IMG/VR virus record: IMGVR_UViG_3300045988_023742
Span: 32,001-96,000 of that record
DNA length: 64,000 bases
From: a virus
Strand: one strand, 5' to 3'
Part shown: positions 35,786-46,717 of the stretch, piece after piece
How the letters are laid out: each line of letters begins with the position of its first letter
Position numbering within the stretch: position 1 is the stretch's first letter
Position numbers and translations under genes: made by a program
The notes under the pieces: generated by a model
Database searches by the model: none
The model's input: only the letters and a program-made list of their open reading frames with translations
Told to the model about the DNA's origin: nothing

Positions 35786-36571
35786 TTACTCAATGCCTTT
35801 AAACAATGTAGGCAAACTACCATATATAGGAAGCTTACCATCCCATTTATCAATCCACTGCTGCTTAAGAATCATAGGAGTCAAAGCCTGTGTTCTAAGT
35901 CTATTAGCTTCTGCTTCAGCCTGTGCTGCAACTACCTTTTTCTCTGCCTCTGCCTTTACTACAGCTAACTCATTCTGAGCCTTTTGTGCCTTTTGAATCG
36001 CAGCATTTTTGGCATTAACTGCATCAACAATAGACTGAGGATACTTCAATCCTGAAGTAAGTTGTTCTAGCTGAAAATTCTCCTTGAGCAATGCTTTAGA
36101 CAGATGTGCTTCAATAGCCTTCTCTACCATATCTCTGTTTGATACAATCTCATCAGTAGTATACTTATTGAGCTGGATTCTAAAGGCATCTTTTACATAG
36201 TTAAAGAGAGTTCCATTGATTACATCTTTCAGTTCCTTCCTATACTTCTTGAATACCTGAGGTGACTTACCATCAGCAATCTTCAATGAAATAGTAGGGT
36301 CAATACTAAACTCTGAACCATCCTTTGCATTAATTGTGAAAGCAGGATAGTCTACTGTCTGGACATAAGTAGGATACTCATAAACCTGCTCAGTGAATGG
36401 ATTATACCACACTGCACCAGTAACCAAAGATACATCATCTACACCCTTGTCAGAGCCATAGAGATTCACTTTAATACCTTCACAACCTGCATCTACTCTC
36501 TCATAACCACATGAGGACATTCCCAACATGGTAAATACTGCCATAAGGCACATAATTACTTTACTCTTCAT
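35786..36571 (-). CDS. SPFH/band-7 (prohibitin-like) lipoprotein
   Basis: Lipoprotein signal MLGMSSCGY. Ala/Glu-rich C-terminal coil AQKAQNELAVVKAEAEKKVVAAQAEAEANRLR, typical of SPFH domain proteins. Confidence 0.65.
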   Translation of the reverse strand: MKSKVIMCLMAVFTMLGMSSCGYERVDAGCEGIKVNLYGSDKGVDDVSLVTGAVWYNPFTEQVYEYPTYVQTVDYPAFTINAKDGSEFSIDPTISLKIADGKSPQVFKKYRKELKDVINGTLFNYVKDAFRIQLNKYTTDEIVSNRDMVEKAIEAHLSKALLKENFQLEQLTSGLKYPQSIVDAVNAKNAAIQKAQKAQNELAVVKAEAEKKVVAAQAEAEANRLRTQALTPMILKQQWIDKWDGKLPIYGSLPTLFKGIE

Positions 36572-36752
36572 TTTCTTTTGTTTTAATTAATTTAATTATT
36601 ACTTCTACACCTATCCATATAGCTACTATGAACAATACAATTCCTGCAATGTTAGCAGCTGTATTACTCATGGTGAGTAATTGAGTAACAGCATTTAGTG
36701 CTATGAATAAACACAGCACTAAACATACTACCTTGATAATGAATTTTCTCAT
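36561..36752 (-). CDS. Small membrane protein
   Basis: 63 aa with two hydrophobic helices. Confidence 0.5.
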   Translation of the reverse strand: MRKFIIKVVCLVLCLFIALNAVTQLLTMSNTAANIAGIVLFIVAIWIGVEVIIKLIKTKENEE

Positions 36753-36756
36753 ATTA

Positions 36757-36963
36757 TTAGTCCCAAAACCAAATATACCTAGCCACCATCTTCCTCATAG
36801 ATATATGACCTTCTAAAGTCTTCCAGAGTTTTTTGTGTCTAAAGTACTTAAACTTTGCTTTCTCCCTATTTTTACCACCTATTACCTTGTATCTATGCCA
36901 TGTTCCACGTTGATATTTACGAAGGTATTTGTGTGGTATTTTATACTTCTTTCCTTTACTCAT
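36757..36963 (-). CDS. Small highly basic protein
   Basis: 68-aa Lys/Arg-rich ORF. Confidence 0.4.
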   Translation of the reverse strand: MSKGKKYKIPHKYLRKYQRGTWHRYKVIGGKNREKAKFKYFRHKKLWKTLEGHISMRKMVARYIWFWD

Positions 36964-37151
36964 ATTGTAAATAGATGTATATAACTTCTTACCACTTCTG
37001 GCTTATTGATAAGATAGTTCCATTGGTGCTTGTTATACCATAGTAGAACCTTATACCTATTATCTACTACTATTATATCTATTGATGGCTCATAATGATT
37101 AAATAGGACCATCACGTATATTATGAGTATTACTATAATACATATCTTCAT
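36960..37151 (-). CDS. Small membrane protein
   Basis: 63 aa with an N-terminal TM helix. Confidence 0.4.
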   Translation of the reverse strand: MKICIIVILIIYVMVLFNHYEPSIDIIVVDNRYKVLLWYNKHQWNYLINKPEVVRSYIHLFTI

Positions 37152-37176
37152 AATTAAATTACTGTGTACAAAAAGA

Positions 37177-37210
37177 AGAGCTAAGTAGGATTTGTACCCT
37201 ACAAAGCTCT
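37177..37210 (-). terminator. Rho-independent terminator
   Basis: Nested stem AGAGCT..GTAGG-loop-CCTAC..AGCTCT followed by TCTTTTT on the minus strand. Confidence 0.55.
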
Positions 37211-37216
37211 ATTGGT

Positions 37217-37615
37217 TTAATCTCCAAGGATATTATAGCTAAAGCCTATAGCACCCATATCATGAGCAATGAGTTCACAATGCTTCTTGATTCTAGCATC
37301 TTCTGACATTGTGTCCCATACTCTGATAAGTTTGCCTTTAACCTTGGCAATAACCTTGTTGTACTTAGGACTTGTTGATTCTTCAAGCATAGCTTCATAA
37401 GCTTCTTGAGACATCTTCAATACCTGTTTTGCAGGCATTGACTTTCTTGTCCTAAATGTAATAACCTCAGGACCTTTGTCCTTCTTTGATTTGTAACTCT
37501 TAAAGAGCATCTTATGCTCTTCAGTTAACTCTTCTGGTTTGTTTTCAGCCACCTGCTGGCTTACCATAATACTTCCTGGAAGTACTAAGATAAGACTCAA
37601 TTTTGGTTCTATCAT
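37217..37615 (-). CDS. Hypothetical protein
   Basis: 132-aa ORF. The start is uncertain. Confidence 0.5.
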   Translation of the reverse strand: MIEPKLSLILVLPGSIMVSQQVAENKPEELTEEHKMLFKSYKSKKDKGPEVITFRTRKSMPAKQVLKMSQEAYEAMLEESTSPKYNKVIAKVKGKLIRVWDTMSEDARIKKHCELIAHDMGAIGFSYNILGD

Positions 37616-37618
37616 AAA

Positions 37619-37960
37619 TTAGTTGTAAATGTCATTGTCTGCACCCTTCTTCACCTTCTCCTTAAGGATTTCCTTTATAACTTCAAGGAACTTTGCCTTA
37701 GATATTGACTTTGCAGTATCCATAAGTGCCATAAACTCTTTTGGAGGCATAGCAATCATTACAGAGATGATAACAGTCGATACAAGAAGAGCACTCTTTC
37801 CAGAGAAGCCTTTAGTGAGGTTTACTACATCCTCAATCTTAACATTCTCTTCTTCGTACTGTTTCTTGTTCTCTTTATAAGCTGACTTAAATGCTTCAAG
37901 TACCTTCTTGATGTCTTCTTCATTGATGATAGACATCTGGTTTTTTTTGTTTGTTGCCAT
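37619..37960 (-). CDS. Hypothetical protein
   Basis: 113-aa ORF, the first gene downstream of the tRNA cluster. Confidence 0.55.
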   Translation of the reverse strand: MATNKKNQMSIINEEDIKKVLEAFKSAYKENKKQYEEENVKIEDVVNLTKGFSGKSALLVSTVIISVMIAMPPKEFMALMDTAKSISKAKFLEVIKEILKEKVKKGADNDIYN

Positions 37961-38010
37961 AATTTTGTTTATTAAAATTAATATGAAATTAATAAATGTT
38001 TTCTAAAAAT

Positions 38011-38122
38011 AGCTACTTAATTGATACATTTGAAGTGTATTGCATTAACCACTATGCTAATTATCCATTCAGAAGAATAATATAGGACTTGAACCTATGA
38101 AATAATAGTATTGTAAGTAGCT
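38011..38122 (-). tRNA. Circularly permuted tRNA gene, anticodon UCA (opal suppressor type)
   Basis: Minus strand order: stem half AGCTACT, TACAATACTATTATTTC, then the 3' half ATAGG-TTCAAGT-CCTAT-ATTATTC (38074-38098), an 8-nt linker, then the 5' half GGATAAT-TA-GCAT-AGTGGTTA-ATGC-A-ATACA-CTTCAAA-TGTAT-CAATT (38019-38066), A, and stem half AGTAGCT. The acceptor halves pair 7/7 (one G-U). Confidence 0.6.
38107..38122 (-). repeat. Stem+TACAAYAYT element, copy g
   Basis: Minus strand AGCTACT-TACAATACT. The partner AGTAGCT lies at 38011-38017, on the far side of the permuted tRNA. Confidence 0.7.
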
Positions 38123-38126
38123 GAAG

Positions 38127-38252
38127 TAAGGCAGAGAAGAATCGAACTTCTGTTACAGGTACTAAATTTTTATTAATATAAATTAGTATTGTAAGTATCA
38201 TTAGATACTAATATTATTATAACCTGTGTCCTGACCACTAGACGACTGCCTT
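38127..38252 (-). tRNA. Glu-family tRNA gene interrupted by a 61-nt segment between the anticodon-stem strands
   Basis: 5' part AAGGCAG-TC-GTCT-AGTGGTCA-GGAC-A-CAGGT (38222-38252). 3' part ACCTG-TAAC-AGAAG-TTCGATT-CTTCT-CTGCCTT-A (38127-38160). 61 nt lie between them (38161-38221) instead of a 7-nt loop, and they carry the conserved hairpin + TACAATACT element. Confidence 0.6.
38185..38209 (-). repeat. Stem+TACAAYAYT element, copy f (local hairpin)
   Basis: Minus strand AGTATC-TAAT-GATACT-TACAATACT, inside the interrupted Glu-family tRNA. Confidence 0.7.
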
Positions 38253-38272
38253 ATGAAATTGGCACTATTCTT

Positions 38273-38346
38273 TATGCACTGATGGGATTGAACCATCTCT
38301 GATTGTACCAAAAAACAATTGTCCTAACCAATTAGACTAAACGCAA
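38273..38346 (-). tRNA. tRNA-Gln(UUG)-like with an apparent 8-nt anticodon loop
   Basis: TTGCGTT-TA-GTCT-AATTGGTTA-GGAC-A-ATTGT-TTTTTGGT-ACAAT-CAGA-GATGG-TTCAATC-CCATC-AGTGCAT-A. Flanked by the covarying stem TTGGCACT / AGTGCCAA. Confidence 0.6.
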
Positions 38347-38351
38347 AATTT

Positions 38352-38368
38352 ACTATTGTAAGTGCCAA
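38352..38368 (-). repeat. Stem+TACAAYAYT element, copy e
   Basis: Minus strand TTGGCACT-TACAATAGT. The partner AGTGCCAA lies at 38259-38266, just 3' of the tRNA. Confidence 0.7.
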
Positions 38369-38372
38369 AAAG

Positions 38373-38483
38373 TGGGGAAGGTAGGACTCGAACCTACATA
38401 GTGATAGTTTATGAAACCTATTGCTTATTGATTTAGTATTGTAAGTATCTAAGATACTATTAAACCATTTTAGCTACTTCCCC
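38373..38483 (-). tRNA. tRNA-like gene interrupted after the D arm (contains a TTCATAA, CAU-type loop)
   Basis: Perfect acceptor GGGGAAG/CTTCCCC, D arm GCTA-AAATGGTTTAA-TAGT and T arm GTAGG-TTCGAGT-CCTAC. About 55 nt lie between the D and T arms, including AGTATC-TTA-GATACT-TACAATACT. Confidence 0.45.
38435..38458 (-). repeat. Stem+TACAAYAYT element, copy d (local hairpin)
   Basis: Minus strand AGTATC-TTA-GATACT-TACAATACT, inside the second interrupted tRNA-like gene. Confidence 0.7.
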
Positions 38484-38500
38484 TTGTATAGTCACTATTT

Positions 38501-38573
38501 ATATACATGTTAGAATCGAACTAACTACACTTGAATTACAAATTCAATGCTCTACCAAATGAGCTAATGCTAT
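38501..38573 (-). tRNA. tRNA-Thr(UGU), imperfect acceptor stem
   Basis: ATAGCAT-TA-GCTC-ATTTGGTA-GAGC-A-TTGAA-TTTGTAA-TTCAA-GTGTA-GTTAG-TTCGATT-CTAAC-ATGTATA. The acceptor pairs fully only if one A is bulged. Flanking stem AGTCACT / AGTGACT. Confidence 0.6.
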
Positions 38574-38574
38574 T

Positions 38575-38590
38575 AGTATTGTAAGTGACT
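38575..38590 (-). repeat. Stem+TACAAYAYT element, copy c
   Basis: Minus strand AGTCACT-TACAATACT. The partner AGTGACT lies at 38490-38496. Confidence 0.7.
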
Positions 38591-38612
38591 GAATATCTGT
38601 AGACACTAAATT

Positions 38613-38686
38613 ATCACATTGTTGGAATCGAACCAACTACTATCTGCTTAAAAGGCTGATGCTCTAACCAAATGAGCTAAATGTTA
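38613..38686 (-). tRNA. tRNA-Lys(UUU)
   Basis: TAACATT-TA-GCTC-ATTTGGTTA-GAGC-A-TCAGC-CTTTTAA-GCAGA-TAGTA-GTTGG-TTCGATT-CCAAC-AATGTGA. Flanking stem TAGACACT / AGTGTCTA. Confidence 0.65.
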
Positions 38687-38690
38687 TAAT

Positions 38691-38707
38691 AATATTGTAA
38701 GTGTCTA
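38691..38707 (-). repeat. Stem+TACAAYAYT element, copy b
   Basis: Minus strand TAGACACT-TACAATATT. The partner AGTGTCTA lies at 38600-38607. Confidence 0.7.
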
Positions 38708-38712
38708 ATGGT

Positions 38713-38743
38713 GAATGTAGGAGGTCTCTCTCCTCCTACATTC
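38713..38743 (-). other. Perfect 12-bp hairpin (terminator or structured RNA)
   Basis: GAATGTAGGAGG-7 nt-CCTCCTACATTC. No U-tract follows it on the minus strand. Confidence 0.5.
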
Positions 38744-38800
38744 TATTGATACTTGTTGTTGAACATTAATACGCTATTCTAATCTATGAAATACAGTTAT

Positions 38801-38815
38801 AATGTTGTAAGTATC
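38801..38815 (-). repeat. Stem+TACAAYAYT element, copy a
   Basis: Minus strand GATACT-TACAACATT, right after the stop of the vWA gene. A possible partner AGTATC lies at 38748-38753. Confidence 0.55.
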
Positions 38816-38824
38816 ATTAGGTCC

Positions 38825-40648
38825 TTAAAGGACATTTTCTCTCACTATGTCATATCTATTACTCCTGAACAATGACTGTAAAGGAGTATAAACATCCATA
38901 ATATCCATATCTTTGAAGTTAGTTAAGAACTGCTCAATCTGTGCTACATTAGCAGGGATATAAATCATGTTCTCAATACCTTCAAATCTGTTGATAGAAG
39001 CACTTCTGAAGCCCCAATCACCATCTACATCAATAGCTACAATATATGGCTTAAATCCAAAGTATCTTTGACACTTCATCATAAAGTCATTCATTGAAGC
39101 TTCAGGAGACCACAATGAGTTCCACTCACCATCACTGATGATAGTCCATACAGGATAGTTCTTCAGAGCATCAAGTATCTGAGGGTTATTCTGACACTCC
39201 CTATGCAAATCATCAGGTATTTTACTTATGTTAGTACCACCACCTTGGAATACTGCATTACAGAAGTTCCTAATAGATTGATAGTTCTCACAGAAGCTCT
39301 TCTTAGGGTCAACAAAAGGAGTCTGCTTTACCTTTACTGTTTCACTTCTGATGAAAGAGTTTACAGAGTTATTCTTTCTGTCTATACAAGTATGCCAATG
39401 ACTATTAGTATTGAAGAAACCAAGTAAGTTTCTACCATCATCATCTGGGTTCTTACATAAACATACAGAAGCTAAGAATGTAGCAAAGTTGAAAGGTTTA
39501 CCTCTCATAGAACCTGAATCATCTATGATTACAAGACTATTATAAGGAAGATTGACCTTAGTCATGAAGGTTTCAAGCTTTAGCTCATCTACATTGTCAT
39601 TACAGATGTCATTATATAGCTCTTTGAAATTAGTAGCTCCTGTATTGACCTTAGCCTGCTTTGCAACTTTCTTCAACTTGATTTTATCCTCTTCTGTAGC
39701 TTGCCCCTGTCTAACTTTTTCCTCTAGAACTCTCTGTTCCTCTTGTTTAGACTCCTTGTACTTCTCCCATTCAGTGAGCCAAGGCTGGAACTTAGAATAT
39801 TTATCCTTCTCAGTATCTTTAATCTTACTGTAAAGGATTCTATTCTTAACTCTAAACCTTGCCTGTGAAGGAAGCTTGTCAAACCAATCAATAAATGATT
39901 GTTTGTCAAACTCATTGATTTTACCTGTAGAGAATAGTACTGACTCAAGGTCACCATTGTAATCCTTTCTCCACTTCCTATAGTCCTTGAAGTTAGCATA
40001 GTTCTCATTTACTTCATACTCCCAACCCATAAGTTCTGAGAGCATTATAAGCAACTTAACCTTATCTTCCATTACCTTTTTAGTCTCAGGAAGCATCTTG
40101 CTATGACCACTTCTTTTGCTTACTCTAGGAAGTGTCAAGAATTTAGCAACAAGAGTTTTATTGAAAGGATTATTACCATTGATAACCTTATAGAGATAGC
40201 TTGCAATAACCTCCCTATATTTTGCCTCAGCAAAGAGATTATGTATTCTAATAACTCTAGAGCCTTTAGTCTGTACTCTATTTCTGAACAGCAAATCAAA
40301 GCAAGTATATTCATTGAATAAACCTGCTTCAAGGAACTTCACAAATTGAGCTTGATGCTTATTCCACATCCAATCAAGAACTACTTGGAAACCTTCTCTA
40401 TTGGCATTACCACCACTATCCTTCTTAACACCCTTAAAGATGTTATGCTGTCTAGCTGTAATATCACCAATTGAGAAAAGTAAACTAAAGAACATTTGCT
40501 TATGTTCTTTATTTCCTCGAACTTCTGACCAGCAAGCATCAAGTAATGATGCATCAATTGTGTTGCCTACACTCTGAAAGAGTTTAAGGCAATTTCTTAA
40601 TCCATAAAAAGGATTATCGTTACTTTTGTTTAACTTTACCTGTACCAT
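38825..40648 (-). CDS. von Willebrand factor A domain protein (DUF2828-like; helical N-terminal region + C-terminal vWA)
   Basis: MIDAS motif VIIDDSGSM (DxSxS) in the C-terminal half. The long helical N-terminal region with LLFSIGDITARQ resembles DUF2828-type phage/eukaryote proteins. Confidence 0.7.
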   Translation of the reverse strand: MVQVKLNKSNDNPFYGLRNCLKLFQSVGNTIDASLLDACWSEVRGNKEHKQMFFSLLFSIGDITARQHNIFKGVKKDSGGNANREGFQVVLDWMWNKHQAQFVKFLEAGLFNEYTCFDLLFRNRVQTKGSRVIRIHNLFAEAKYREVIASYLYKVINGNNPFNKTLVAKFLTLPRVSKRSGHSKMLPETKKVMEDKVKLLIMLSELMGWEYEVNENYANFKDYRKWRKDYNGDLESVLFSTGKINEFDKQSFIDWFDKLPSQARFRVKNRILYSKIKDTEKDKYSKFQPWLTEWEKYKESKQEEQRVLEEKVRQGQATEEDKIKLKKVAKQAKVNTGATNFKELYNDICNDNVDELKLETFMTKVNLPYNSLVIIDDSGSMRGKPFNFATFLASVCLCKNPDDDGRNLLGFFNTNSHWHTCIDRKNNSVNSFIRSETVKVKQTPFVDPKKSFCENYQSIRNFCNAVFQGGGTNISKIPDDLHRECQNNPQILDALKNYPVWTIISDGEWNSLWSPEASMNDFMMKCQRYFGFKPYIVAIDVDGDWGFRSASINRFEGIENMIYIPANVAQIEQFLTNFKDMDIMDVYTPLQSLFRSNRYDIVRENVL

Positions 40649-40671
40649 TCTGCTAATGTTTTATTTTATTT

Positions 40672-40689
40672 TTGTAAGTAACGTAGTTA
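40672..40689 (-). repeat. Stem+TACAA element, copy h, upstream of a protein gene
   Basis: Minus strand TAAC-TAC-GTTACT-TACAAAAAT. The ACTTACAA core ends about 23 nt upstream of the ATG at 40648. Confidence 0.5.
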
Positions 40690-40735
40690 GGATATTCTTT
40701 TCTATCTTTGAACTATATATGTCTTCCTTATACTA

Positions 40736-41179
40736 CTAGAAAGTTTCAGTTTCACTCATAGCTGAAAGCTCTGCTTCAAGCTCCTTAATCTTATCTTCAG
40801 GTGACTTCTGAGATTCTTTAAGAGCTTTAAGTTTAGCTGTAAGTTCAGCTTTCTTCTGAGCATTTTCCTCAACTTCCATTCTATGCCTCTTGTAACCTAT
40901 TACTAGGTTTACAAGCTCCTTCTGTTCCTTAGCAGTATCTAACTGCCTTGCATTAGAATTGCTTGCAACCCACTCATCTTGACTTTCAAGCTGCTTAATC
41001 TTGTTAGATAAAGCAAGTCTGATGTTATTAAGAGAGTTGATTGTAGTAGTGTGGAGCAACTCAACTACATTGATAGGTGTGCCAAGCTTAGAATTTACTG
41101 TGTCGTTGCTAAGCAACATAGTAAGAAGCAATGAACACATCTTATCAAAGTGTTCTTTTGTGAAATTAATCTTTGCCAT
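40736..41179 (-). CDS. Hypothetical coiled-coil protein
   Basis: 147-aa ORF. Confidence 0.6.
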   Translation of the reverse strand: MAKINFTKEHFDKMCSLLLTMLLSNDTVNSKLGTPINVVELLHTTTINSLNNIRLALSNKIKQLESQDEWVASNSNARQLDTAKEQKELVNLVIGYKRHRMEVEENAQKKAELTAKLKALKESQKSPEDKIKELEAELSAMSETETF

Positions 41180-41343
41180 TAGATATTGATTTTATAGTAT
41201 TCTTTACCATTTTCCTTGAGTTCCTTGACATACTCAATGTCAATCTTATCATTACATGAGTAGGAGTTTACAATCATAACTTCCTTACTCTCATCAAGGT
41301 TCTTCAATGCCTCTCGAAGGTCTTTTACTGTAAATTTTGCCAT
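41179..41343 (-). CDS. Small hypothetical protein (54 aa)
   Basis: Hand-translated MAKFTVKDLREALKNLDESKEVMIVNSYSCNDKIDIEYVKELKENGKEYYKINI. TAATG overlap with the next gene. Confidence 0.4.
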   Translation of the reverse strand: MAKFTVKDLREALKNLDESKEVMIVNSYSCNDKIDIEYVKELKENGKEYYKINI

Positions 41344-41405
41344 AGTTTTCTAACTTAATAAGTTATTCTACATAGAAGTAAGTAAATGTTATAAGCTACT
41401 TTATA

Positions 41406-41436
41406 ATTGGGATGCTCATTACAGAAACATCCCAAT
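41406..41436 (-). terminator. Hairpin terminator
   Basis: ATTGGGATG-13 nt-CATCCCAAT, 9-bp stem, about 50 nt after the stop at 41484. Confidence 0.5.
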
Positions 41437-41483
41437 TTACTTATAAACTCTCTTAAGTCTACTTTGTACTTATACATGACTTC

Positions 41484-42146
41484 TTAGTAGCCACTAATAA
41501 TTTCAAAGTCTACCATATCACCATACTTGGCTTCAGTGATAAGCATACCAAAGTACTTTCCAAGATGCTGAGCAATCTCTTTATTTGCACAACCTAGGAA
41601 CCCGATATTAGCATTAGCATCACCCACACCATTGCTAGAGTTGAAGTAACCCAAGCCAGCATTACCACCATTATAAGCGTAGCCACCAAGAACATTATAT
41701 TCTTCCCCTTCACTCTTAATCTTGCCTATTACCTCTATTTTACCTGAGTTAATCTCACTCTTATAGTAAGTAGAACTCTTAGTTACAAATGGATTGTAAG
41801 GATAATAGATGTAAGAGTCTTCTGGGTCTTTTGTGAGATGCAAATCCTGACCTAAGTTAAGAGCTTTTCTGATGATGTTTAACTTGAACATAGCAGCAGA
41901 TGCTTTACTAATTGTGGCTATGTTGTTAGCATTAATAAGACATAACATATAATCAAGATTAAGAGCCATACAAGCCTTCTTAAAAGTTGTAATGCTCTTA
42001 AAGTTATATGTCAACTCATCTTTGTCAAAGGCTTGAAGTGCAATCTCTTTGAGTGTTGCATTTCCACTGTTGAACCACTCTTTAGCCTTATTAAGAGTGA
42101 CAGTTACATTTCTTTCTTTCATGTTATTTATATTAATTAATCCCAA
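41484..42146 (-). CDS. Hypothetical protein
   Basis: 220-aa ORF. Confidence 0.6.
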   Translation of the reverse strand: MGLININNMKERNVTVTLNKAKEWFNSGNATLKEIALQAFDKDELTYNFKSITTFKKACMALNLDYMLCLINANNIATISKASAAMFKLNIIRKALNLGQDLHLTKDPEDSYIYYPYNPFVTKSSTYYKSEINSGKIEVIGKIKSEGEEYNVLGGYAYNGGNAGLGYFNSSNGVGDANANIGFLGCANKEIAQHLGKYFGMLITEAKYGDMVDFEIISGY

Positions 42147-42322
42147 ATATACGCTTCATACTCACATCTAAGCTCCATTTCAGCTTGCTTAGCTTCTTCA
42201 AGATATATACTTAAGAAGTGTGAACATTCATCAAAACTTTCAATGTTTCCATCAAATTCAATGTACAACCATTGTTCACAGTATCTTACTGCTGATTGTT
42301 GCTTTTCAGTTGACTTTCTCAT
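42137..42322 (-). CDS. Hypothetical protein
   Basis: 61-aa ORF. Confidence 0.45.
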   Translation of the reverse strand: MRKSTEKQQSAVRYCEQWLYIEFDGNIESFDECSHFLSIYLEEAKQAEMELRCEYEAYIWD

Positions 42323-42423
42323 TAGTTCTAGATATTAGATATTCCTCAAAGATATTCCCTATTACAGGTCTATCCTTGAGAAATATTGTTCTACTTCAAT
42401 CCTATTAGCTTTTTGATTCTAGC

Positions 42424-42705
42424 CTATAGTGTATTCTTCTCTGGCTGAACAGTAGAACTTCCACTATTCTTTCTGTTCTTATAGATAGTCTTAGGACCTA
42501 CTGCTAAGAAACTTACACCCAATTTAGCTGGATTATTTGCAGGAGCTATAACTTGATACCAATGTATATAACAGGCATTACTTGTTCTACCTTCAAGCTT
42601 AGTTGCAGCATATCTGCAAGCTTCTTTAATGTTATGAGGATTAGCTGTAATAGCCTGGACTAGAATATTATTCTCCTCATCAGTCCATCTTTTCTTTGTT
42701 ATCAT
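42424..42705 (-). CDS. Myb/SANT-like DNA-binding protein
   Basis: KRWTDEENNILVQAI...NACYIHWYQV shows the W..E...L / W spacing of Myb-type HTH repeats. Confidence 0.55.
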   Translation of the reverse strand: MITKKRWTDEENNILVQAITANPHNIKEACRYAATKLEGRTSNACYIHWYQVIAPANNPAKLGVSFLAVGPKTIYKNRKNSGSSTVQPEKNTL

Positions 42706-42743
42706 ACTCTTGTTTGCTTTATTATTCTTATTTCTTGTTTTTG

Positions 42744-42815
42744 TGCCCTTAGTAAGACTCGAACTTACATTCCAAGTTTAGGAAACTTGTGCTCTATCCA
42801 TTGAACTATAAGGAC
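42744..42815 (-). tRNA. tRNA-Arg(CCU)
   Basis: GTCCTTA-TA-GTTC-AATGGATA-GAGC-A-CAAGT-TTCCTAA-ACTTG-GAAT-GTAAG-TTCGAGT-CTTAC-TAAGGGC-A. Confidence 0.8.
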
Positions 42816-42946
42816 AGTTGGGGCTTTTTATTCTTCAAGTGTGTGCCCTCTTCTATTCCTTCTTCACACTTATGGCTATAGAAGTAACTAGCTAGCTTAG
42901 TACTTTAGATTCACCATACTCTTTACACTTTGCAACCCTCAAAGTG

Positions 42947-43126
42947 TCAGTTAGAAAACAATGCTATTACATCTTCAAAAGTATATTCAACCTTATTTAA
43001 ATCTAGTGATTTAGTAGGTTTAATAACCTTTGAAGACTCTTTATTGTATTCTCTAGCAACAACATCAACCTCTTCATCTAATAAAGAATGGTTTATTGCA
43101 AAGTAATATAGTTCTTTAATTGTCAT
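42947..43126 (-). CDS. Small hypothetical protein (59 aa)
   Basis: Hand-translated MTIKELYYFAINHSLLDEEVDVVAREYNKESSKVIKPTKSLDLNKVEYTFEDVIALFSN. Followed by the hairpin CACTTTG-7 nt-CAAAGTG. Confidence 0.4.
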   Translation of the reverse strand: MTIKELYYFAINHSLLDEEVDVVAREYNKESSKVIKPTKSLDLNKVEYTFEDVIALFSN

Positions 43127-43141
43127 AACTATTAACTTTTG

Positions 43142-43215
43142 TGCATCCAGTGAGACTCGAACTCACAACCCACAGCTTAGAAGGCTGTTGCTCTAATCCA
43201 TTGAGCTATGGATGC
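43142..43215 (-). tRNA. tRNA-Arg(UCU)
   Basis: GCATCCA-TA-GCTC-AATGGATTA-GAGC-A-ACAGC-CTTCTAA-GCTGT-GGGTT-GTGAG-TTCGAGT-CTCAC-TGGATGC-A. Confidence 0.85.
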
Positions 43216-43280
43216 TTCAATTAGATTATTTCTAAACCATGTATGTTACAGTATTTATCAGCTAGCTCTCTTAATGCAAG

Positions 43281-43354
43281 TGGGTCAATAGGGACTTGAA
43301 CCCTAAACCTTCACATTATGAGTGTGCTGCTCTAACCACTTGAGCTATAGACCC
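43281..43354 (-). tRNA. tRNA-Met/Ile2(CAU)
   Basis: GGGTCTA-TA-GCTC-AAGTGGTTA-GAGC-A-GCACA-CTCATAA-TGTGA-AGGTT-TAGGG-TTCAAGT-CCCTA-TTGACCC-A. Confidence 0.8.
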
Positions 43355-43421
43355 TAAATGCTATTACTTCACAGTAATAGCACATCCTAAAAACAATCTT
43401 TAACCTTATAATAACTAAAAC

Positions 43422-43661
43422 CTAATCTTTATCTAGTTTAAGTGTCTTATTAAATAGATTATAACCAGACACTATCTTGTACTCTTCTTTAGTAATAGTA
43501 TAGAAACAAGCTAAAATGAGCATAATATTTAATACTATCATACCAAAGAACCAACCATAACCTTTGTATGCAATACTATCTATACCACAAACAGAGAGTA
43601 TTACTATGAGTGCTGAAACCCATAGTAATATACCTTTGAGAATTAACTTAATACTTTTCAT
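43422..43661 (-). CDS. Membrane protein
   Basis: 79 aa with two TM helices. Confidence 0.5.
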   Translation of the reverse strand: MKSIKLILKGILLWVSALIVILSVCGIDSIAYKGYGWFFGMIVLNIMLILACFYTITKEEYKIVSGYNLFNKTLKLDKD

Positions 43662-43957
43662 GATTTCTTAAAGTTTAATTCTTTCTGTATTTGCTCTTTT
43701 ACCTCTTTTGAGAGGTATTGCTTGTAGTCTTTTCCAGTCTTTGCAGACTTTCTATTGATATATACTGCACCACTCTTGGTAATATAGATAGGATATTTAT
43801 TACCTTTCTTATCTTCCCAAGTATATTTAGTTTGCTGTCCTTCACTCTTTGTAGTTTGAGTAGTTGTAGACTTAAAAGTATTACCTTCTCTTGCTACTTG
43901 AGCATAGCTTGTACAGCTTAATAAAGCCATAAACAAGCAGAAAATGAGCTTTTTCAT
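43658..43957 (-). CDS. Secreted/lipoprotein-like small protein
   Basis: Signal peptide MKKLIFCLFMALLSCTSYAQ with a lipobox-like LLSC. Confidence 0.55.
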   Translation of the reverse strand: MKKLIFCLFMALLSCTSYAQVAREGNTFKSTTTQTTKSEGQQTKYTWEDKKGNKYPIYITKSGAVYINRKSAKTGKDYKQYLSKEVKEQIQKELNFKKS

Positions 43958-44172
43958 TATTTATTTTGCTGATTTTTACTTTCCATTATGATGTAAATTA
44001 CAAGCCAAAAGACTATATTTGCACCAATGATTACTGTTGTATCTTCCATTGTTTCAGTAAAAATAGTTATGAATAACCATTTAACTTTTGCTTTTGCTTA
44101 GGAGAGAAAGGCAATAAGGTAGGGAGAGATATAGTCAACCTCTCCTACCTATTACCTTATGACTTCAAAGCA

Positions 44173-44457
44173 TTAAGCCTCAACTCTGAAGATGTCAGAC
44201 TCACCTGACTTCTCAAGAGTGAGAAGCTTAGCAGATGCCAAGTCAATAGAATCACCTACTGCCTTAGCTGAGTTCTGTGACAGTGGGATGAATGTCTGTC
44301 CACCACCTACCATAGTAAAGCAAACTGAATTGCCATACTGTGATGCCACTACTACTGCTGATGCAACTGCTGCAACTTCCTCTGGTGAGAAAGCTCGTGA
44401 AGACTTAAGATTCCACTTACCAGCATACACTCTCAATGAACTAAAGATATTAGCCAT
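44173..44457 (-). CDS. Hypothetical protein, MNIF..RVYAGKW family, paralog 1
   Basis: 94 aa, clearly similar over its full length to the product of 44921..45202 (MANIFSSLRVYAGKW..SQYGNSV.FTMVGGG..IPL.QNS..LEKSGE.DI.RV). Confidence 0.6.
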   Translation of the reverse strand: MANIFSSLRVYAGKWNLKSSRAFSPEEVAAVASAVVVASQYGNSVCFTMVGGGQTFIPLSQNSAKAVGDSIDLASAKLLTLEKSGESDIFRVEA

Positions 44458-44555
44458 ATTATTTCACCTATGCCCTTAGGATTTATTTTGGTATCTAGCA
44501 CACCTGTTGTTTGTTGAATGTTGTTTGTTGTATAACCCCAATGCCCTTGGGGTTG

Positions 44556-44582
44556 TCAGTAGCCAAGGAGGAGTAATTAGCC
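44556..44582 (-). promoter_or_regulatory. Intergenic motif copy R1 (candidate phage promoter)
   Basis: Plus strand TCAGTAGCCAAGGAGGAGTAATTAGCC. Minus strand GGCTAATTACTCCTCCTTGGCTACTGA. Confidence 0.4.
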
Positions 44583-44633
44583 AAAGAGATAAGAAATATA
44601 TAATATCTTTTGGCAATGACTTACTTCGCCTTG

Positions 44634-44660
44634 TCAAGAGCAAAGGAGGAGTAATTAGCC
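44634..44660 (-). promoter_or_regulatory. Intergenic motif copy R2
   Basis: Plus strand TCAAGAGCAAAGGAGGAGTAATTAGCC. The 18-nt core is identical to R1, 78 nt away. Confidence 0.4.
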
Positions 44661-44920
44661 TAACTTAATACACATTGCAATTAGCTCCTTGCTACTACCT
44701 TTCCCTTACCTTTATCTCTTTGCTTTTGGCTCTTGCTTCTGCCTCCCATTCCCTTGATAAGAAAGAAAAGAACCAAAAGAAAGAATTAATCCTAACTATA
44801 ACTATTATTTTCTTTATATATTTCTTTTCTTTATATTACTTTCTTTTCTTGCTTCTATCTAAGGGGAGAAAAAAGAAAGGGCAAGAAGACTAATGTCTTC
44901 TCACCCAAAGATGCTAACTA

Positions 44921-45202
44921 TTATATAGTAACTCTATAAATGTCAGCTTCACCACTCTTCTCAAGAGTAGTGAGTTTAGCCTTAGTGAGGTCTATAACCT
45001 CACCAGTAGCACAGTTAGAGTTCTGGTCAAGTGGAATATAAGTTAATCCACCACCAACCATAGTGAACTGAACTGAGTTACCATACTGTGATGGTACTAC
45101 TACAGCCTGAGAAACCTGTGAGATTTCCTCATCAGTAAAGTTTCTAGTCTCTTTAACAGACCACTTACCAGCATAAACACGAAGATTACTAAAGATATTC
45201 AT
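44921..45202 (-). CDS. Hypothetical protein, MNIF..RVYAGKW family, paralog 2
   Basis: The track ORF starts at a GTG (45220). The ATG at 45202 (MNIFSNLRVYAGKW) aligns with the paralog N-terminus. Confidence 0.6.
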   Translation of the reverse strand: MNIFSNLRVYAGKWSVKETRNFTDEEISQVSQAVVVPSQYGNSVQFTMVGGGLTYIPLDQNSNCATGEVIDLTKAKLTTLEKSGEADIYRVTI

Positions 45203-45255
45203 AATAAAATGACGGTTCACCTAAGCACCGTAAGGTTCAAAGTTAATATTAAAGT

Positions 45256-45282
45256 TCAAGAAGAGAGGAGGATTAATTAGCC
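45256..45282 (-). promoter_or_regulatory. Intergenic motif copy R3
   Basis: Plus strand TCAAGAAGAGAGGAGGATTAATTAGCC. It overlaps the stop of 45273..45521 and lies 55-80 nt upstream of the ATG at 45202. Confidence 0.4.
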
Positions 45283-45521
45283 TCCTGAAAGAGAGAGTCT
45301 AGTTTAGCTCTAGACTCATAATAATTATGAGGGTCAAAAGCATCAACCCAATCATACTGAGCATCAAGAGTGTCAAGCAACTCCTCAGTGTGCTTATTAT
45401 AAGAATCATAAGCATCAATGAGTTCATTATTTTCTCTTACAGTGATGTTTTGGCACACCAAAAAGCCTGCACAAAATGCTACTATAGCAGCAAGTGTGCA
45501 AAGTACTAGTGACTTTCTCAT
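45273..45521 (-). CDS. Small signal-anchored protein
   Basis: 82 aa with an N-terminal hydrophobic helix. Confidence 0.55.
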   Translation of the reverse strand: MRKSLVLCTLAAIVAFCAGFLVCQNITVRENNELIDAYDSYNKHTEELLDTLDAQYDWVDAFDPHNYYESRAKLDSLFQEAN

Positions 45522-45662
45522 TTACTTTAAATTAATGGTTTTAGTGTTCAATCTCTTAAGATATTCATCATACTTCTGAGCCTCTTCCTTATTAACGGGA
45601 AGCTCCTCATAAACACCATCAGACACATAAACTCTAGTAACAAATCTATCAAAGATATTCAT
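45522..45662 (-). CDS. Small hypothetical protein (46 aa) with MNIF N-terminus
   Basis: Hand-translated MNIFDRFVTRVYVSDGVYEELPVNKEEAQKYDEYLKRLNTKTINLK. Its stop directly abuts the next ATG (TAAATG). Confidence 0.35.
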   Translation of the reverse strand: MNIFDRFVTRVYVSDGVYEELPVNKEEAQKYDEYLKRLNTKTINLK

Positions 45663-45690
45663 TTTAATAATATTTTAGTTAATAATTAAA

Positions 45691-45717
45691 TCAAAGTAGA
45701 AGGAGGAGATATTAGCT
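45691..45717 (-). promoter_or_regulatory. Intergenic motif copy R4
   Basis: Plus strand TCAAAGTAGAAGGAGGAGATATTAGCT, 30-55 nt upstream of the ATG at 45662. Confidence 0.4.
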
Positions 45718-45727
45718 TCTCCAATAT

Positions 45728-45904
45728 TTATTTAAAGTTTAAGTCATACTCCTCTTCAGTGAGGATTTCTTCTGCTAGACTGACTGCTTCTGTAACAGGC
45801 ATATCATAGCACTGCTTGACTTCATTCCAAGTTCCATACTCTTCTGTGATGTGTCTCAAGAGACTTAGACCATGCTTGGTCTTCAAGAAATTGTTTGTTT
45901 TCAT
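45728..45904 (-). CDS. Hypothetical protein (58 aa)
   Basis: I use the internal start MKTNNFLK at 45904. The track extension to 45964 is hydrophobic read-through of the promoter region. Confidence 0.45.
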   Translation of the reverse strand: MKTNNFLKTKHGLSLLRHITEEYGTWNEVKQCYDMPVTEAVSLAEEILTEEEYDLNFK

Positions 45905-45960
45905 TTGTCTTGTATTTAAAAAGTGAAACAATGTGACAAGAGCCAGGGGAGTGACCCAAG

Positions 45961-45987
45961 TCAAGCAAGGGGGAGGGGTGGTTAGCT
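45961..45987 (-). promoter_or_regulatory. Intergenic motif copy R5 (divergent)
   Basis: Plus strand TCAAGCAAGGGGGAGGGGTGGTTAGCT. This is a degenerate version of R1-R4, about 60-85 nt upstream of the ATG at 45904. Confidence 0.3.
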
Positions 45988-46104
45988 GGTATTATCAACC
46001 ACTTCTATAAATACCAAACTTCAAAAAAAATTTCAGAAAATTTTTCTCAAAGTACCTCTAAACATAAATAATTTACTTATAGTATGAAAAAAGTTACTGA
46101 AAAA

Positions 46105-46136
46105 TTTGGTAGTTTCAAATATTATTTGTACCTTTG
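46105..46136 (+). promoter_or_regulatory. Bacteroidota-type promoter for tRNA array 1
   Basis: TTTGgtagtttcaaatattatttgTACCTTTG: -33 TTTG, 20-nt spacer, -7 TAnnTTTG. Near-identical cassette at 48353-48384. Confidence 0.65.
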
Positions 46137-46154
46137 CACTCAGTTAATAAACAA

Positions 46155-46226
46155 TGCCTCTTAGTGTAATGGTTAGCACACAAGTTTTTGGCACTTAGAG
46201 TAGGGGTTCAAATCCTCTAGGGGCAA
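46155..46226 (+). tRNA. tRNA-Gln(UUG)
   Basis: TGCCTCT-TA-GTGT-AATGGTTA-GCAC-A-CAAGT-TTTTGGC-ACTTA-GAGT-AGGGG-TTCAAAT-CCTCT-AGGGGCA-A. Confidence 0.75.
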
Positions 46227-46299
46227 CTAGAAAGTTAGTTGTTTGTTTGTTGTTTATATTGATTAACCTCCTTAATCTGTGAAGATGAAAGAGGTGCAT

Positions 46300-46371
46300 A
46301 GAGCTATCATCTAGTGGTAAGGATGCAAGGTTTTCAACCTTGTCACAGGGGTTCAAATCCCCTTGGCTCTA
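46300..46371 (+). tRNA. tRNA-Glu(UUC)
   Basis: AGAGCTA-TC-ATCT-AGTGGTAA-GGAT-G-CAAGG-TTTTCAA-CCTTG-TCAC-AGGGG-TTCAAAT-CCCCT-TGGCTCT-A. Confidence 0.85.
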
Positions 46372-46377
46372 CTATAT

Positions 46378-46450
46378 AGGCTATGTGGTGTGATGGTTTG
46401 CATATCACACTGTCAATGTGAATGATAGGGTTCAATTCCCTCATAGTCTG
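46378..46450 (+). tRNA. tRNA-Asp(GUC)
   Basis: Anticodon arm TCACA-CTGTCAA-TGTGA, T loop TTCAATT, acceptor GGCTATG/CATAGTC. The ends are uncertain by 1-2 nt. Confidence 0.7.
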
Positions 46451-46454
46451 CAAT

Positions 46455-46545: not shown

Positions 46546-46549
46546 CAAT

Positions 46550-46633: not shown

Positions 46634-46640
46634 CTTTAAT

Positions 46641-46713: not shown

Positions 46714-46717
46714 CTAT

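Follow-up and report, generated by a model that had tools for sequence, protein, structure and literature searches.

A tRNA gene of a crAss-like phage interrupted in its anticodon loop by a recurrent helix-plus-motif module, a possible RNA-level intervening element

Disrupted tRNA genes whose transcripts are processed through a bulge-helix-bulge (BHB) comprise archaeal introns at canonical and non-canonical positions, the split tRNAs of Nanoarchaeum, and the permuted genes of the alga Cyanidioschyzon merolae and of some archaea. To our knowledge, permuted tRNA genes have been described in certain archaea and a small number of algae and nowhere else, and group I introns are the one kind of intervening sequence recorded so far in tRNA genes of bacteria and phages. 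The hallmark of these introns is a catalytic core (P3-P9) within roughly 200 nt or more. We know of no tRNA-disruption system of the BHB kind in phages of Bacteroidales.

A different point of comparison is offered by the YrlA RNAs, which are tRNA-like and are encoded beside Ro60 (Rsr) in bacteria and phages (PMC4201824). Their helix carries the conserved element GNCGAAN0-1G, and the YrlA RNA of M. smegmatis is cut by RNase P and then receives CCA (PMC4201824). Phage-encoded Ro60 with nearby Y-like RNAs has also been recorded (PMC12135203).

The window, the whole stretch of 64,000 nucleotides analysed here, belongs to a gut crAss-like phage, and every tRNA of the cluster described below carries exactly one copy of a module made of a short helix and a conserved single-stranded motif (M). 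The module lies around the tRNA in three units, in the D loop in one, in the anticodon loop in U6 and around a permuted tRNA in one. All eight copies in the window are on the minus strand, from 38003 to 40683. The features, in the direction of transcription, are:

40736 to 41179, minus strand: p147, a protein of 147 aa that looks like a coiled coil
40618 to 40683, minus strand: module copy in the leader of the vWA gene, CGTTACT-TACAAAAATA, ribosome-binding region, ATG (40648), AGTAACG in codons 9-11
38825 to 40648, minus strand: vWA607, a protein of 607 aa with a helical N-terminal domain and a C-terminal vWA domain with MIDAS
38747 to 38816, minus strand: U1, TGATACT-TACAACATTA, 46 nt of non-tRNA cargo, then AGTATCA
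38740-38716, minus strand: G+C-rich hairpin following U1
38600 to 38707, minus strand: U2, TAGACACT-TACAATATTA, tRNA-Lys(UUU) at 38687-38612, then AGTGTCTA
38490 to 38590, minus strand: U3, AGTCACT-TACAATACTA, tRNA(UGU) at 38573-38501, then AGTGACT
38373 to 38483, minus strand: U4, tRNA gene with anticodon region TTTCATAA (CAU)
38458-38434, minus strand: interruption of the U4 D loop, AGTATC-TTA-GATACT-TACAATACTA
38259 to 38368, minus strand: U5, TTGGCACT-TACAATAGTA, tRNA at 38346-38274 with an 8-nt anticodon loop TTTTTGGT, then AGTGCCAA
38127 to 38252, minus strand: U6, Glu-family tRNA gene interrupted in the anticodon loop
38252-38222, minus strand: 5' exon of U6, AAGGCAG TC GTC TAGTGGTCAG GAC A CAGGT
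38221-38161, minus strand: U6 insert of 61 nt, made up of a 12-nt AT-rich spacer, the H3 arm AGTATC, the loop TAAT, the H5 arm GATACT, motif M TACAATACTA and a 23-nt AT-rich spacer
38184 to 38209, minus strand: module core of U6, the hairpin AGTATC-TAAT-GATACT (38209-38194) followed by TACAATACTA (38193-38184)
38160-38127, minus strand: 3' exon of U6 including the discriminator A, ACCTG TAAC AGAAG TTCGATT CTTCT CTGCCTT A
38003 to 38122, minus strand: U7, circularly permuted tRNA gene; AGCTACT-TACAATACTA, T arm and 3' acceptor strand (38098-38075), linker TTCTGAAT, then 5' acceptor, D arm and anticodon arm (38066-38024), then CAATTA-AGTAGCT

Elsewhere in the window, in an ordinary tRNA cluster, there is a weak Rfam match to YrlA (47972-48081).

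The sequence-only reading had described U6 as a Glu-family tRNA body in which 61 nt replace the anticodon loop and in which all arms are canonical. Both statements were confirmed, with the exact coordinates and the minus strand given above: the stems, of 7 bp (acceptor), 3 bp (D) and 5 bp (anticodon and T alike), are Watson-Crick throughout. The close resemblance that had been noted to the phage's own tRNA-Glu(UUC) at 46300-46371 extends to a Glu-type D arm common to both genes, and amounts to 65% identity over the exons (42 of 65 positions). U6 is called neither by ARAGORN nor by the Rfam tRNA model, because of the insert; when deletions around the insert were made in silico, ARAGORN called a tRNA in 113 deletion variants. 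An uninterrupted copy of the U6 body was not found in IMG/VR. As with group I introns, it is the anticodon loop of a tRNA that is interrupted in a bacterial system. Unlike them, the insert has 61 nt rather than roughly 200 nt or more and no core, an Rfam scan of positions 36000-50000 (E<=1) returned no intron family, and the element also occurs outside tRNAs and in D loops; the earlier exclusion of a group I intron thus held. A stand-alone intron of archaeal or eukaryal type, which the size of the insert had suggested, did not hold up: no BHB can be drawn in U6, since its helix has 7 bp without paired 3-nt bulges, and the same module recurs elsewhere in the cluster. AGTATC-TAAT-GATACT-TACAATACTAAT is no peculiarity of U6, being the repeated module of the whole cluster.

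The module consists of a 7-bp helix (H), in which 5'-AGURNCU-3' pairs with 5'-AGNYACU-3', and of UACAAUAYUA directly 3' of the second arm. The latter is single-stranded, and AT-rich linkers of variable length connect the module to the tRNA body. In 28 loci the motif showed a strand bias of 208 to 25, and 147 of the 208 sites had an exact reverse-complement 7-mer in the expected zone, compared with 24 +/- 4 in a permutation control. The helix is exactly 7 bp long and 96% Watson-Crick, with G-U and A-C pairs at 13 to 6. Its central positions vary between units yet remain complementary: the variable 4 nt of the arm occur in 22 versions, every version being matched by a complement of its own, and there is one orthologous compensatory change (GGCACT/AGTGCC to GGTACT/AGTACC). 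The spacers between module and body are not fixed (from 1 to 12 nt on the 5' side and from 0 to 34 nt on the 3' side, sometimes including additional helices), so that cutting beside the module alone cannot yield canonical loops. A fixed-distance splice rule (1-2 nt before the 5' arm, 5-7 nt after the motif) fitted the D-loop and permuted units only, failed for U6 and for inserts at position 26, and was abandoned. A spliceosome- or group II-like reading of the window's copy (GUAUC ... UACUAAU ... UAG) was also rejected, because relatives have no terminal AG and the product would have no 7-nt loop. Scanning IMG/VR with the bare 14-nt motif gave mostly chance single matches, the useful ones being L026 and L094 only. 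We take to be coincidental the resemblance of the complement TAGTATTGTA to the circovirus/nanovirus origin nonamer TAGTATTAC, the identity of AUACUUAC with the 5' end of U1 snRNA, and the likeness of a 7-bp helix with UACA to an acceptor stem with NCCA.

After folding of the RNA the module takes three equivalent topologies. Around a whole tRNA, H extends the acceptor end; as a hairpin, its adjacent arms lie in the D loop, at position 26/27 or, in U6, in the anticodon loop; and in the permuted form the arms flank a tRNA in which a short linker connects the acceptor ends. U7 has its 3' half upstream of its 5' half with a short linker between them, and circularisation restores the cloverleaf. Its anticodon loop is CTTCAAA (anticodon UCA), it has a partial Rfam tRNA match at 38010-38066, and when its cargo was doubled ARAGORN called tRNA(UCA) in 76 of 100 trimmed versions. 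In relatives it keeps C32 U33 ... A37 A38 while the anticodon varies (UCA, GUU, UUU, GUC, GAU), and 13 further distinct permuted tRNAs of U7 type were found. Relatives also contain 33 hairpin-form copies inside tRNA bodies. For those in the D loop and at position 26/27, deletion of the module restored tRNAs called by ARAGORN with a stable anticodon, and in L138 it gave a clean tRNA-Glu(UUC). Searches of IMG/VR for uninterrupted copies of U4 returned chance matches only. Fourteen distinct flank-form cargos, when circularised, are tRNAs broken between the anticodon arm and the T arm.

The U6 body with an insert at the same place was found in 10 distinct variants on other contigs, and by comparison of these sequences the conjunction of body and insert position is far beyond chance. 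Exon differences among them are limited to position 20, the 27-43 pair, position 39, the 30-40 pair (one G-U wobble) and the discriminator (one change). The acceptor, D and T helices are invariant, the 27-43 pair is compensatory (C-G in three, U-A in seven), and five of the six pairs of the module hairpin are invariant. The exons are thus near-invariant, while the spacers carry substitutions and indels and a neighbouring protein diverges to 81% identity among the same relatives. Comparison with orthologs had been proposed as a check on U6, and it shows no decay towards a pseudogene, given the near-invariant exons and the compensatory change. On this evidence U6 is neither a group I intron nor a pseudogene. 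Position 31 pairs with 39 in the window's copy alone, the other nine of the ten variants having a mismatch there. Folding of the ten variants yielded no shared extra helix from the AT-rich spacers.

The 23-nt spacer of U6 ends in TTAGT, a putative anticodon UUA followed by G37 and U38. The placing of the anticodon at the 3' end of the insert, at first a supposition, gained comparative support: the last five inserted nucleotides are NNN-R-T in the 10 variants and in one more distant homologue, and GGTT is invariant on the 5' side of the insert in the same set. The triplet changes fast (TTA, GTG, TGG, TTG, TAG, TTC, GTT, TCG, TCA and CGG), and the near-identical pairs WIN/L154 and L151/L155 differ almost solely in it; the window's own triplet is UUA. 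U33 is not consistently available in the variants, and no exact junction is derivable from them. The proposal that UUA makes U6 a suppressor stays speculative, as the window shows no TAA recoding. No gene in it looks interrupted, and long-ORF totals rise by 8-25%, to a similar extent whichever stop is made coding, so that recoding is not indicated.

Some 28 related crAss-like contigs also have the module system, with 179 modules, and the position of the island is stable across relatives. It is absent from the close relative cr116_1, and no GenBank phage record was found with this cluster. Modules are also kept around non-tRNA cargos of about 40 nt and in an mRNA leader, and on analysis these placements would be no less compatible with a binding site than with a splice signal. 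The leader is that of the vWA gene, whose start codon is enclosed by a module copy. This copy is present in 25 of the 28 loci of the module search, and changes of its seventh pair are matched in most copies. The genes of p147 and vWA607 accompany the cluster in all 27 loci, that of p147 lying upstream on the same strand throughout and directly adjacent in 23. Among bacterial genomes, the vWA gene has its sole relative on a MAG contig of 5 kb. The MIDAS motif of vWA607 is DDSGSM (residues 376-381), and the protein is a candidate partner of the module. No nuclease-like domain was found in it, and no nuclease or ligase family was detected near its gene with Pfam (four neighbouring ORFs) or PHROGs (seven).

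The reading that we prefer, at a probability of about 0.45, is that the 61 nt may be an RNA-level intervening element, working like the BHB in tRNA disruption through a different motif. The bodies of the cluster appear from their sequences to be selected as decoding tRNAs. As for cleavage and ligation, the responsible enzymes and the exact junction, we infer that a factor would recognise helix and motif, the best candidate being the co-inherited pair of p147 and the vWA/MIDAS protein, and would direct removal of the module and then joining of the ends. For internal copies this would amount to splicing, and for flanked tRNAs to plain release; a permuted unit would first become a circle, which RNase P and RNase Z would then open at the acceptor linker. 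In the mature loop of U6 the invariant ...CAGGUU would be joined to the last 5-6 inserted nucleotides, (U)UUAGU, giving the anticodon UUA. The predicted junctions are CAGGUU|(U)UUAGUACCUG or CAGGUU|UUUAGUACCUG for U6, GGUUUA(AU)|AAGCAAUAGG for U4 and, for circular U7, UGUAUCAAU...|...AUAGGUUCAAG.

Such processing would follow the same logic as the BHB in archaea and C. merolae. Like those systems, the phage has one structural motif in three arrangements (at various sites inside tRNAs, around permuted tRNAs and around intact RNAs), permuted tRNAs with the 3' half before the 5' half and mutually pairing flanks, and an insert of tens of nucleotides. Unlike in those systems, the genes are carried by a bacteriophage of Bacteroidales, and no EndA-like endonuclease or ligase was found among the neighbouring ORFs scanned. 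The BHB is purely structural, with 4 bp between two 3-nt bulges that lie on opposite strands where exon and intron meet, whereas the phage helix is fully paired over 7 bp, with a conserved single strand of 10 nt on one side and 1-5 nt on the other; the phage motif is conserved in sequence, and variable linkers separate it from the tRNA body. The leader and trailer of U7 likewise form the 7-bp helix with UACAAUA in place of a BHB.

The main rival, which we consider rather unlikely, is that nothing is spliced and that helix and motif form a Y-RNA-like ribonucleoprotein handle, a permanent site for the vWA/MIDAS protein with or without p147, on bodies that would be scaffolds or mimics. In U6 the handle would replace the anticodon loop as the Ro60-binding stem replaces the anticodon stem of YrlA. 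The copy at the vWA start codon would serve autoregulation, and permuted units would be YrlA-like, entered through the handle and closed at the acceptor by a loop that RNase P can open. That each RNA has one handle, that handles are conserved on non-tRNA cargo and in the mRNA leader, and that the linkers are AT-rich and variable without a fixed junction all agree with this. So do the precedents of tRNA-like YrlA RNAs encoded beside Ro60 in bacteria and phages (PMC4201824) and of phage Ro60 with nearby Y-like RNAs (PMC12135203). Here, too, tRNA-like RNAs lie directly beside a gene for a helical and vWA/MIDAS protein, systems of this type also occurring in phages, and a stem with a conserved element, putatively protein-binding in the present case, is attached to a tRNA-like domain. 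The permuted order of T arm, acceptor hairpin and D arm is shared with YrlA, and three relatives have a permuted unit without an anticodon arm, in which the helix directly follows the D arm as in the YrlA layout. Against a non-decoding scaffold, the anticodon loops of U3, U4, U7 and U6 (NNN-R-T) keep decoding features and change only in the triplet. Unlike YrlA, most of the phage bodies keep complete anticodon arms with changing anticodons, and there are many RNAs per phage locus. The cluster (37990-38830) has no Rfam match to YrlA or Y_RNA, and by eye the module contains no element resembling GNCGAAN0-1G.

Identification of vWA607 as Ro60, which that rival would favour, was pursued with Pfam, PHROGs, PDB sequences, two AlphaFold models and Foldseek, and was set aside, the outcome being a generic vWA domain with weak hints. 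Like Ro60, the protein combines a helical domain with vWA/MIDAS; in a PDB sequence search four of six weak matches, at the MIDAS strand (E 0.05-0.4), were Ro60 proteins, and a weak PHROG match is named 'RNA-binding protein'. On the other side, no TROVE or Ro60 vWA model matched in Pfam scans of the window's vWA607 and ten distant homologues, and its model (pLDDT 90) retrieved generic vWA domains from the PDB, with no Ro60 among the 50 Foldseek matches listed.

It is improbable that the module acts at the level of DNA, as the footprint of a mobile or recombining cassette, for instance one moved by a single-strand transposase that depends on hairpins or one with an integron-like site; insertion and rearrangement would then have produced the interrupted and permuted genes, which would be non-functional as precursors. 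The pair GACACT/AGTGTC does enclose different cargos, tRNA-Lys in the window and some 41 nt without a tRNA in L120-L129. The hairpin and flank forms are mutual circular permutations, as expected from excision and re-integration; the insert of L138 has a 3-nt direct repeat (TCT) and short inverted repeats at its borders; and TTAC within the motif is presumably to be counted here as the target tetranucleotide of IS608. However, transposon ends share one sequence, whereas the arms differ between copies yet remain complementary, and unlike MITEs, IS200/IS605 hairpin elements and integron attC sites the phage copies have no common terminal sequence. The arms also pair over a distance of 40-100 nt that takes in a folded tRNA, the bias is towards the strand that is transcribed, the exons of interrupted genes are under strong purifying selection with compensatory change, and the island does not move among relatives. 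No transposase, integrase, HUH-nuclease or other recombinase family was detected by Pfam in the four immediate neighbours.

Still less probable is a phage promoter, in which TACAAT would be a -10-like element with transcription starting at tRNA +1 and internal copies giving separately transcribed halves. TACAAT is one position off TATAAT, about half of the flank-form tRNAs have the start of their body 9-15 nt downstream of the motif's first T, and a module copy lies 19 nt upstream of the vWA ATG. An upstream arm outside the transcript would nevertheless leave the strict complementarity of the arms unexplained, and the copy before the vWA gene is inside the p147-vWA operon, 87 nt after the p147 stop. 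Outside the island no paired copy was seen upstream of the window's genes or at its other tRNA clusters, and a scan for sigma-70-type promoters and terminators gave nothing above chance. Bacteroidales promoters use a different -7 motif, which counts against this explanation as well. Scarcely credible, finally, is an inactivated pseudogene or a chance resemblance, for which the silence of standard tRNA finders and the mismatched 31-39 pair might be cited, since the pattern of conservation (exons held despite a neighbouring protein at 81% identity, the compensated 27-43 pair, variation concentrated in the spacers and one triplet) already contradicts it.

If the module is an RNA-level intervening element, this group of crAss-like phages might carry its own tRNA maturation pathway, independent of group I introns, with excision and ligation directed by the 7-bp helix and UACAAUA; this we put forward tentatively, with somewhat less assurance than the reading of U6 itself. 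Under such a pathway tRNA genes could be interrupted at several positions or circularly permuted. The tagged, interrupted and permuted layout is otherwise archaeal and algal only, so these phages may have an undescribed tRNA-processing system. The idea of splicing lends itself to direct tests, since junction sequences, circular intermediates and a candidate partner of two proteins all follow from it. If it is true, permuted tRNA genes and protein-dependent (or otherwise novel) tRNA splicing would be reported here for the first time from bacteria or phages, and p147 with the vWA/MIDAS protein would be part of the machinery or its regulator. Either an undescribed route of RNA cleavage and ligation or a new tRNA-mimic ribonucleoprotein in bacteria is possible.

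In an entire clade of phages abundant in the human gut, one conserved element flanks, interrupts or permutes tRNA genes. Module-bearing genes escape the standard tRNA finders, and phage tRNA repertoires are under-counted in consequence, candidate suppressor tRNAs included. These candidates bear on stop-codon recoding in crAss-like phages, which is unexplained (PMC7886860). The system may serve rapid switching of anticodons, stop-codon-reading ones among them.

Unit U6 (38252..38127, minus strand) is a Glu-family tRNA body in which a 61-nt insert, also read on the minus strand, separates two exons. The 5' exon reads AAGGCAG TC GTC TAGTGGTCAG GAC A CAGGT and the 3' exon ACCTG TAAC AGAAG TTCGATT CTTCT CTGCCTT A, with perfect pairing in 4/4 cloverleaf helices. 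The exons match the phage's own tRNA-Glu(UUC) (46300-46371) at 42/65 positions (65%), and the two genes have the Glu-type three-pair D stem in common. U6 was called neither by ARAGORN nor by the Rfam tRNA model, and 113 in-silico deletion variants around the insert were called as tRNA by ARAGORN. On these grounds the description and coordinates offered by the sequence-only reading were accurate.

The insert carries one copy of a motif, ACTTACAATACTA, of which seven lie between 38106 and 38812, all on the minus strand; elsewhere in the 64-kb window only two-mismatch matches were found. The 7–8 nt directly before each copy have their exact reverse complement a short distance off. Since every copy is preceded by such a complementary arm, the module was defined as a helix, H (arms H5 and H3), followed 3' by a single-stranded motif, M (UACAAUAYUA).

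Arm pairs of the modules in the window
TGATACT/AGTATCA
TAGACACT/AGTGTCTA
AGTCACT/AGTGACT
TTGGCACT/AGTGCCAA
AGCTACT/AGTAGCT
GATACT/AGTATC (two copies)
CGTTACT/AGTAACG (eighth copy, close upstream of the adjacent 607-aa gene)

Twenty-six loci fetched through the 607-aa protein, one found by motif scan (L026) and the window together supplied 179 modules, with the consensus A-G-N-Y-A-C-U / U-A-C-A-A-(U/A)-A-n-U-A and a G at position -6 in 169/179 copies. An exact complementary 7-mer was present in the expected zone at 147/208 motif sites, compared with 24 +/- 4 after permutation of the variable arms among sites, and the motif occurs 208 times on the gene strand versus 25 on the opposite strand. 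Helix H spans exactly 7 bp, an eighth position being random, and its pairs are Watson-Crick in 96%, with G-U commoner than A-C (13 versus 6); orthologous units display a compensatory change from GGCACT/AGTGCC to GGTACT/AGTACC. By its sequence the module is a conserved RNA-level element, its pairing kept by compensation and its copies biased to the transcribed strand.

In the cluster there is one module per tRNA (1:1), arranged in three topologies.

Module-bearing tRNA units of the window
38687-38612, minus strand: tRNA-Lys, flanking form (H5-M-tRNA-H3)
38573-38501, minus strand: tRNA(UGU), unit U3, flanking form
38346-38274, minus strand: tRNA with an 8-nt anticodon loop, unit U5, flanking form
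38483-38373, minus strand: unit U4, internal form (adjacent arms making a hairpin) in the D loop
38252-38127, minus strand: unit U6, internal form in the anticodon loop
38122-38003, minus strand: unit U7, permuted form

U7 runs in the order H5-M, T arm, 3' acceptor strand ATTATTC, 8-nt linker, 5' acceptor strand GGATAAT, D arm, anticodon arm and H3; its anticodon loop, CUUCAAA, has the anticodon UCA, which would read the stop codon UGA. When its cargo was doubled, ARAGORN found a tRNA spanning the junction in 76/100 trimmed versions, and by its sequence U7 is a circularly permuted tRNA gene. Permuted tRNAs whose break separates the anticodon arm from the T arm amount to 14 distinct cases (U7 and 13 in related contigs), with anticodons including those for Cys, Thr, Asn, Lys, Asp, Ile, Ser, Val, Leu and Phe. 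The internal copies of relatives occupy the D loop, the anticodon loop or the interval that separates D stem and anticodon stem, and removal of the module plus a short flanking helix from one of them (L138) leaves a clean tRNA-Glu(UUC). Folding turns the three topologies into one and the same structure: a tRNA body bearing the helix-plus-motif on its acceptor end, a loop or the variable region, with either the helix or the acceptor as the point of entry for the transcript. The module permits interrupted and permuted gene layouts, once per tRNA of a dedicated cluster. The other 19 tRNA genes of the phage (42743-43354, minus strand, and 46155-48638, plus strand) are ordinary, high-scoring and module-free, which sets the module-bearing genes apart as a class of their own in the same genome.

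In U4 the loop of the anticodon region, GTTTCATAAA, is oversized and lies between stems of 4 bp; in relatives it is a normal 7-nt loop with CAU or UUU. The 8-nt loop of U5, TTTTTGGT, is given a 4-base anticodon, 'tttg', by ARAGORN, and relatives have 7-nt loops (TTTTGGT, TTTGGGT) or one of 9 nt. U3, uncalled by ARAGORN and scoring 51 bits with Rfam, has ATAGCAT opposite ATGTATA in an irregular acceptor stem, which allows either 4 pairs and then three mismatches or, if one A is bulged, 7 pairs. A large viral contig of 350 kb that is unrelated (IMGVR_UViG_3300003322_000571, 1255-1420) holds a Glu-like tRNA 5' part, GGCAGTCGTCTAGTGGTAGGACA, separated by >100 nt of G+C-rich sequence from a T-arm-like GGTTCGACTCC, and may represent an interrupted tRNA gene of another kind.

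Module cargo is bimodal in length, at ~30–50 nt (not tRNA) or 70–100 nt (tRNA-sized). In the stretch 38716-38816 (minus strand), directly after the stop codon of the vWA gene, a module surrounds 46 nt of non-tRNA cargo, poorly conserved in relatives, and is followed by a 9-bp G+C-rich hairpin, TGTAGGAGG-AGAGAGA-CCTCCTACA. The helix arms of the tRNA-Lys unit hold ~41 nt of non-tRNA sequence in relatives.

In the intact anticodon loops of the cluster (38024-38687, minus strand, and loci L120-L145) the body and U33/A37/A38 are constant and the anticodon varies, which looks like rapid anticodon switching among close relatives.

Anticodons in the window and its relatives
U7 (permuted): UCA, GUU, UUU, GUC, GAU
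U3: UGU, GGU, UAU, CAU
U4: CAU, UUU
U5: UUG, UGG

Viral and metagenome contigs yielded 10 distinct U6 variants, with near-constant exons. Exon differences are limited to position 20, the 27-43 pair (compensatory; C-G in 3 variants, U-A in 7), position 39, 30-40 (one G-U wobble) and the discriminator (one change). The AT-rich spacers on either side of the module accept substitutions and indels, the 3' spacer ranging from 12 to 24 nt; the 5'-side GGTT is unchanged in all variants. The final five nt of the insert are NNN-purine-T throughout, the triplet being TTA (window), GTG, TGG (twice), TTG, TAG, TTC, GTT, TCG or TCA, and CGG in a distant homologue. Between the near-identical copies of the window and L154 the differences are position 20 and three further ones, within or beside the triplet; between L151 and L155 the single difference is within it. 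This fast-changing triplet, and the same pattern in the intact loops, are read as evidence that the anticodon of U6 lies directly 3' of the insert, a placement with which the earlier guess of UUA for the window agrees. No sign of TAA, TAG or TGA recoding was seen within the window. An exact mature loop does not follow from the sequence: U33 taken from the unchanging TT that the 5' exon supplies gives an 8-nt loop in most variants, and position -6, the second source considered, is U in only about half; the 31-39 pair forms in the window's copy only. Constant bodies with a varying anticodon or triplet are likewise read as evidence that the cluster RNAs are selected as decoders.

The phage is crAss-like, with relatives among the Steigviridae. 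Two genes accompany the cluster.

Protein genes adjoining the cluster
38825-40648, minus strand: vWA607, a 607-aa protein with a vWA domain; precedes the cluster in every locus
40736-41179, minus strand: p147, a 147-aa coiled-coil protein; upstream of vWA607 in 27/27 loci, directly adjacent in 23

This two-gene unit (38825-41179) occurs together with the module-bearing cluster in 27/27 loci, and no part of the island is present in cr116_1 (MT774389), a close relative. The vWA607 family, with 179 representatives among 1.84 billion, is narrow and essentially absent from 185,579 bacterial genomes. In a confident model of vWA607 (pLDDT 90, pTM 0.84) the N-terminal domain is helical and the C-terminal one is a vWA domain that bears a MIDAS motif; Foldseek returned generic vWA domains only, among the 50 matches listed. 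Weak hints to Ro60 came from a PHROG 'RNA-binding protein' match (E 5.6e-4) and from a PDB profile search in which Ro60 chains made up four of six weak matches, at the MIDAS strand; since Pfam scans of the window protein and ten distant homologues returned no TROVE or Ro60 vWA model, membership is not established. A leader module (40618-40683, minus strand), between the two genes, encloses the ribosome-binding region and ATG, its 3' arm falling within vWA607 codons 9–11 (Ser-Asn). It is conserved in relatives, the seventh pair being C-G, U-A or A-U and matched in most copies. This is the classic operator layout of an RNA-binding or RNA-cleaving protein that would control its own synthesis, and suggests translational autoregulation or self-cleavage of the vWA607 mRNA.

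One process could cover all forms, in which helix and motif would be recognised, the module removed and the ends joined. Internal copies would be spliced out, flanked tRNAs released, the vWA607 mRNA cut or masked, and permuted units circularised before RNase P and RNase Z opened the acceptor linker. The bulge-helix-bulge processing of archaea and Cyanidioschyzon has the same working logic, but the phage motif falls outside the bulge-helix-bulge definition. The removal model has three weak points. Among the neighbouring ORFs scanned, four with Pfam and seven with PHROGs, no nuclease or ligase was identified; the length of the linker that joins module and body is variable, and the choice of site would need the tRNA body as its reference; and modules persist around non-tRNA cargo. 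The main rival to this model holds that nothing is spliced and that the module would serve permanently as a handle for protein, in the manner of YrlA/Ro60 particles (PMC4201824, PMC12135203). Such a handle would account for linkers of variable length, for the copy in the leader and for permuted units without an anticodon arm, but is hard to fit to decoder-like evolution of the anticodon loops, above all the fast-changing triplet beside the 3' stem of U6. The maintained pairing of the arms makes a promoter less likely, and likewise a DNA-level cassette, against which the strand bias also counts; the near-constant exons do the same for a pseudogene.

Full-text literature searches returned no account of the motif, or of tRNA genes that are interrupted or permuted, in crAss-like or other phages, and the cluster is in no GenBank phage record of the collection examined. 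The finding belongs with the known disrupted tRNA genes; its biological setting and motif are new. If cleavage and ligation were confirmed, this would count as a new system of RNA processing in a bacterial setting.
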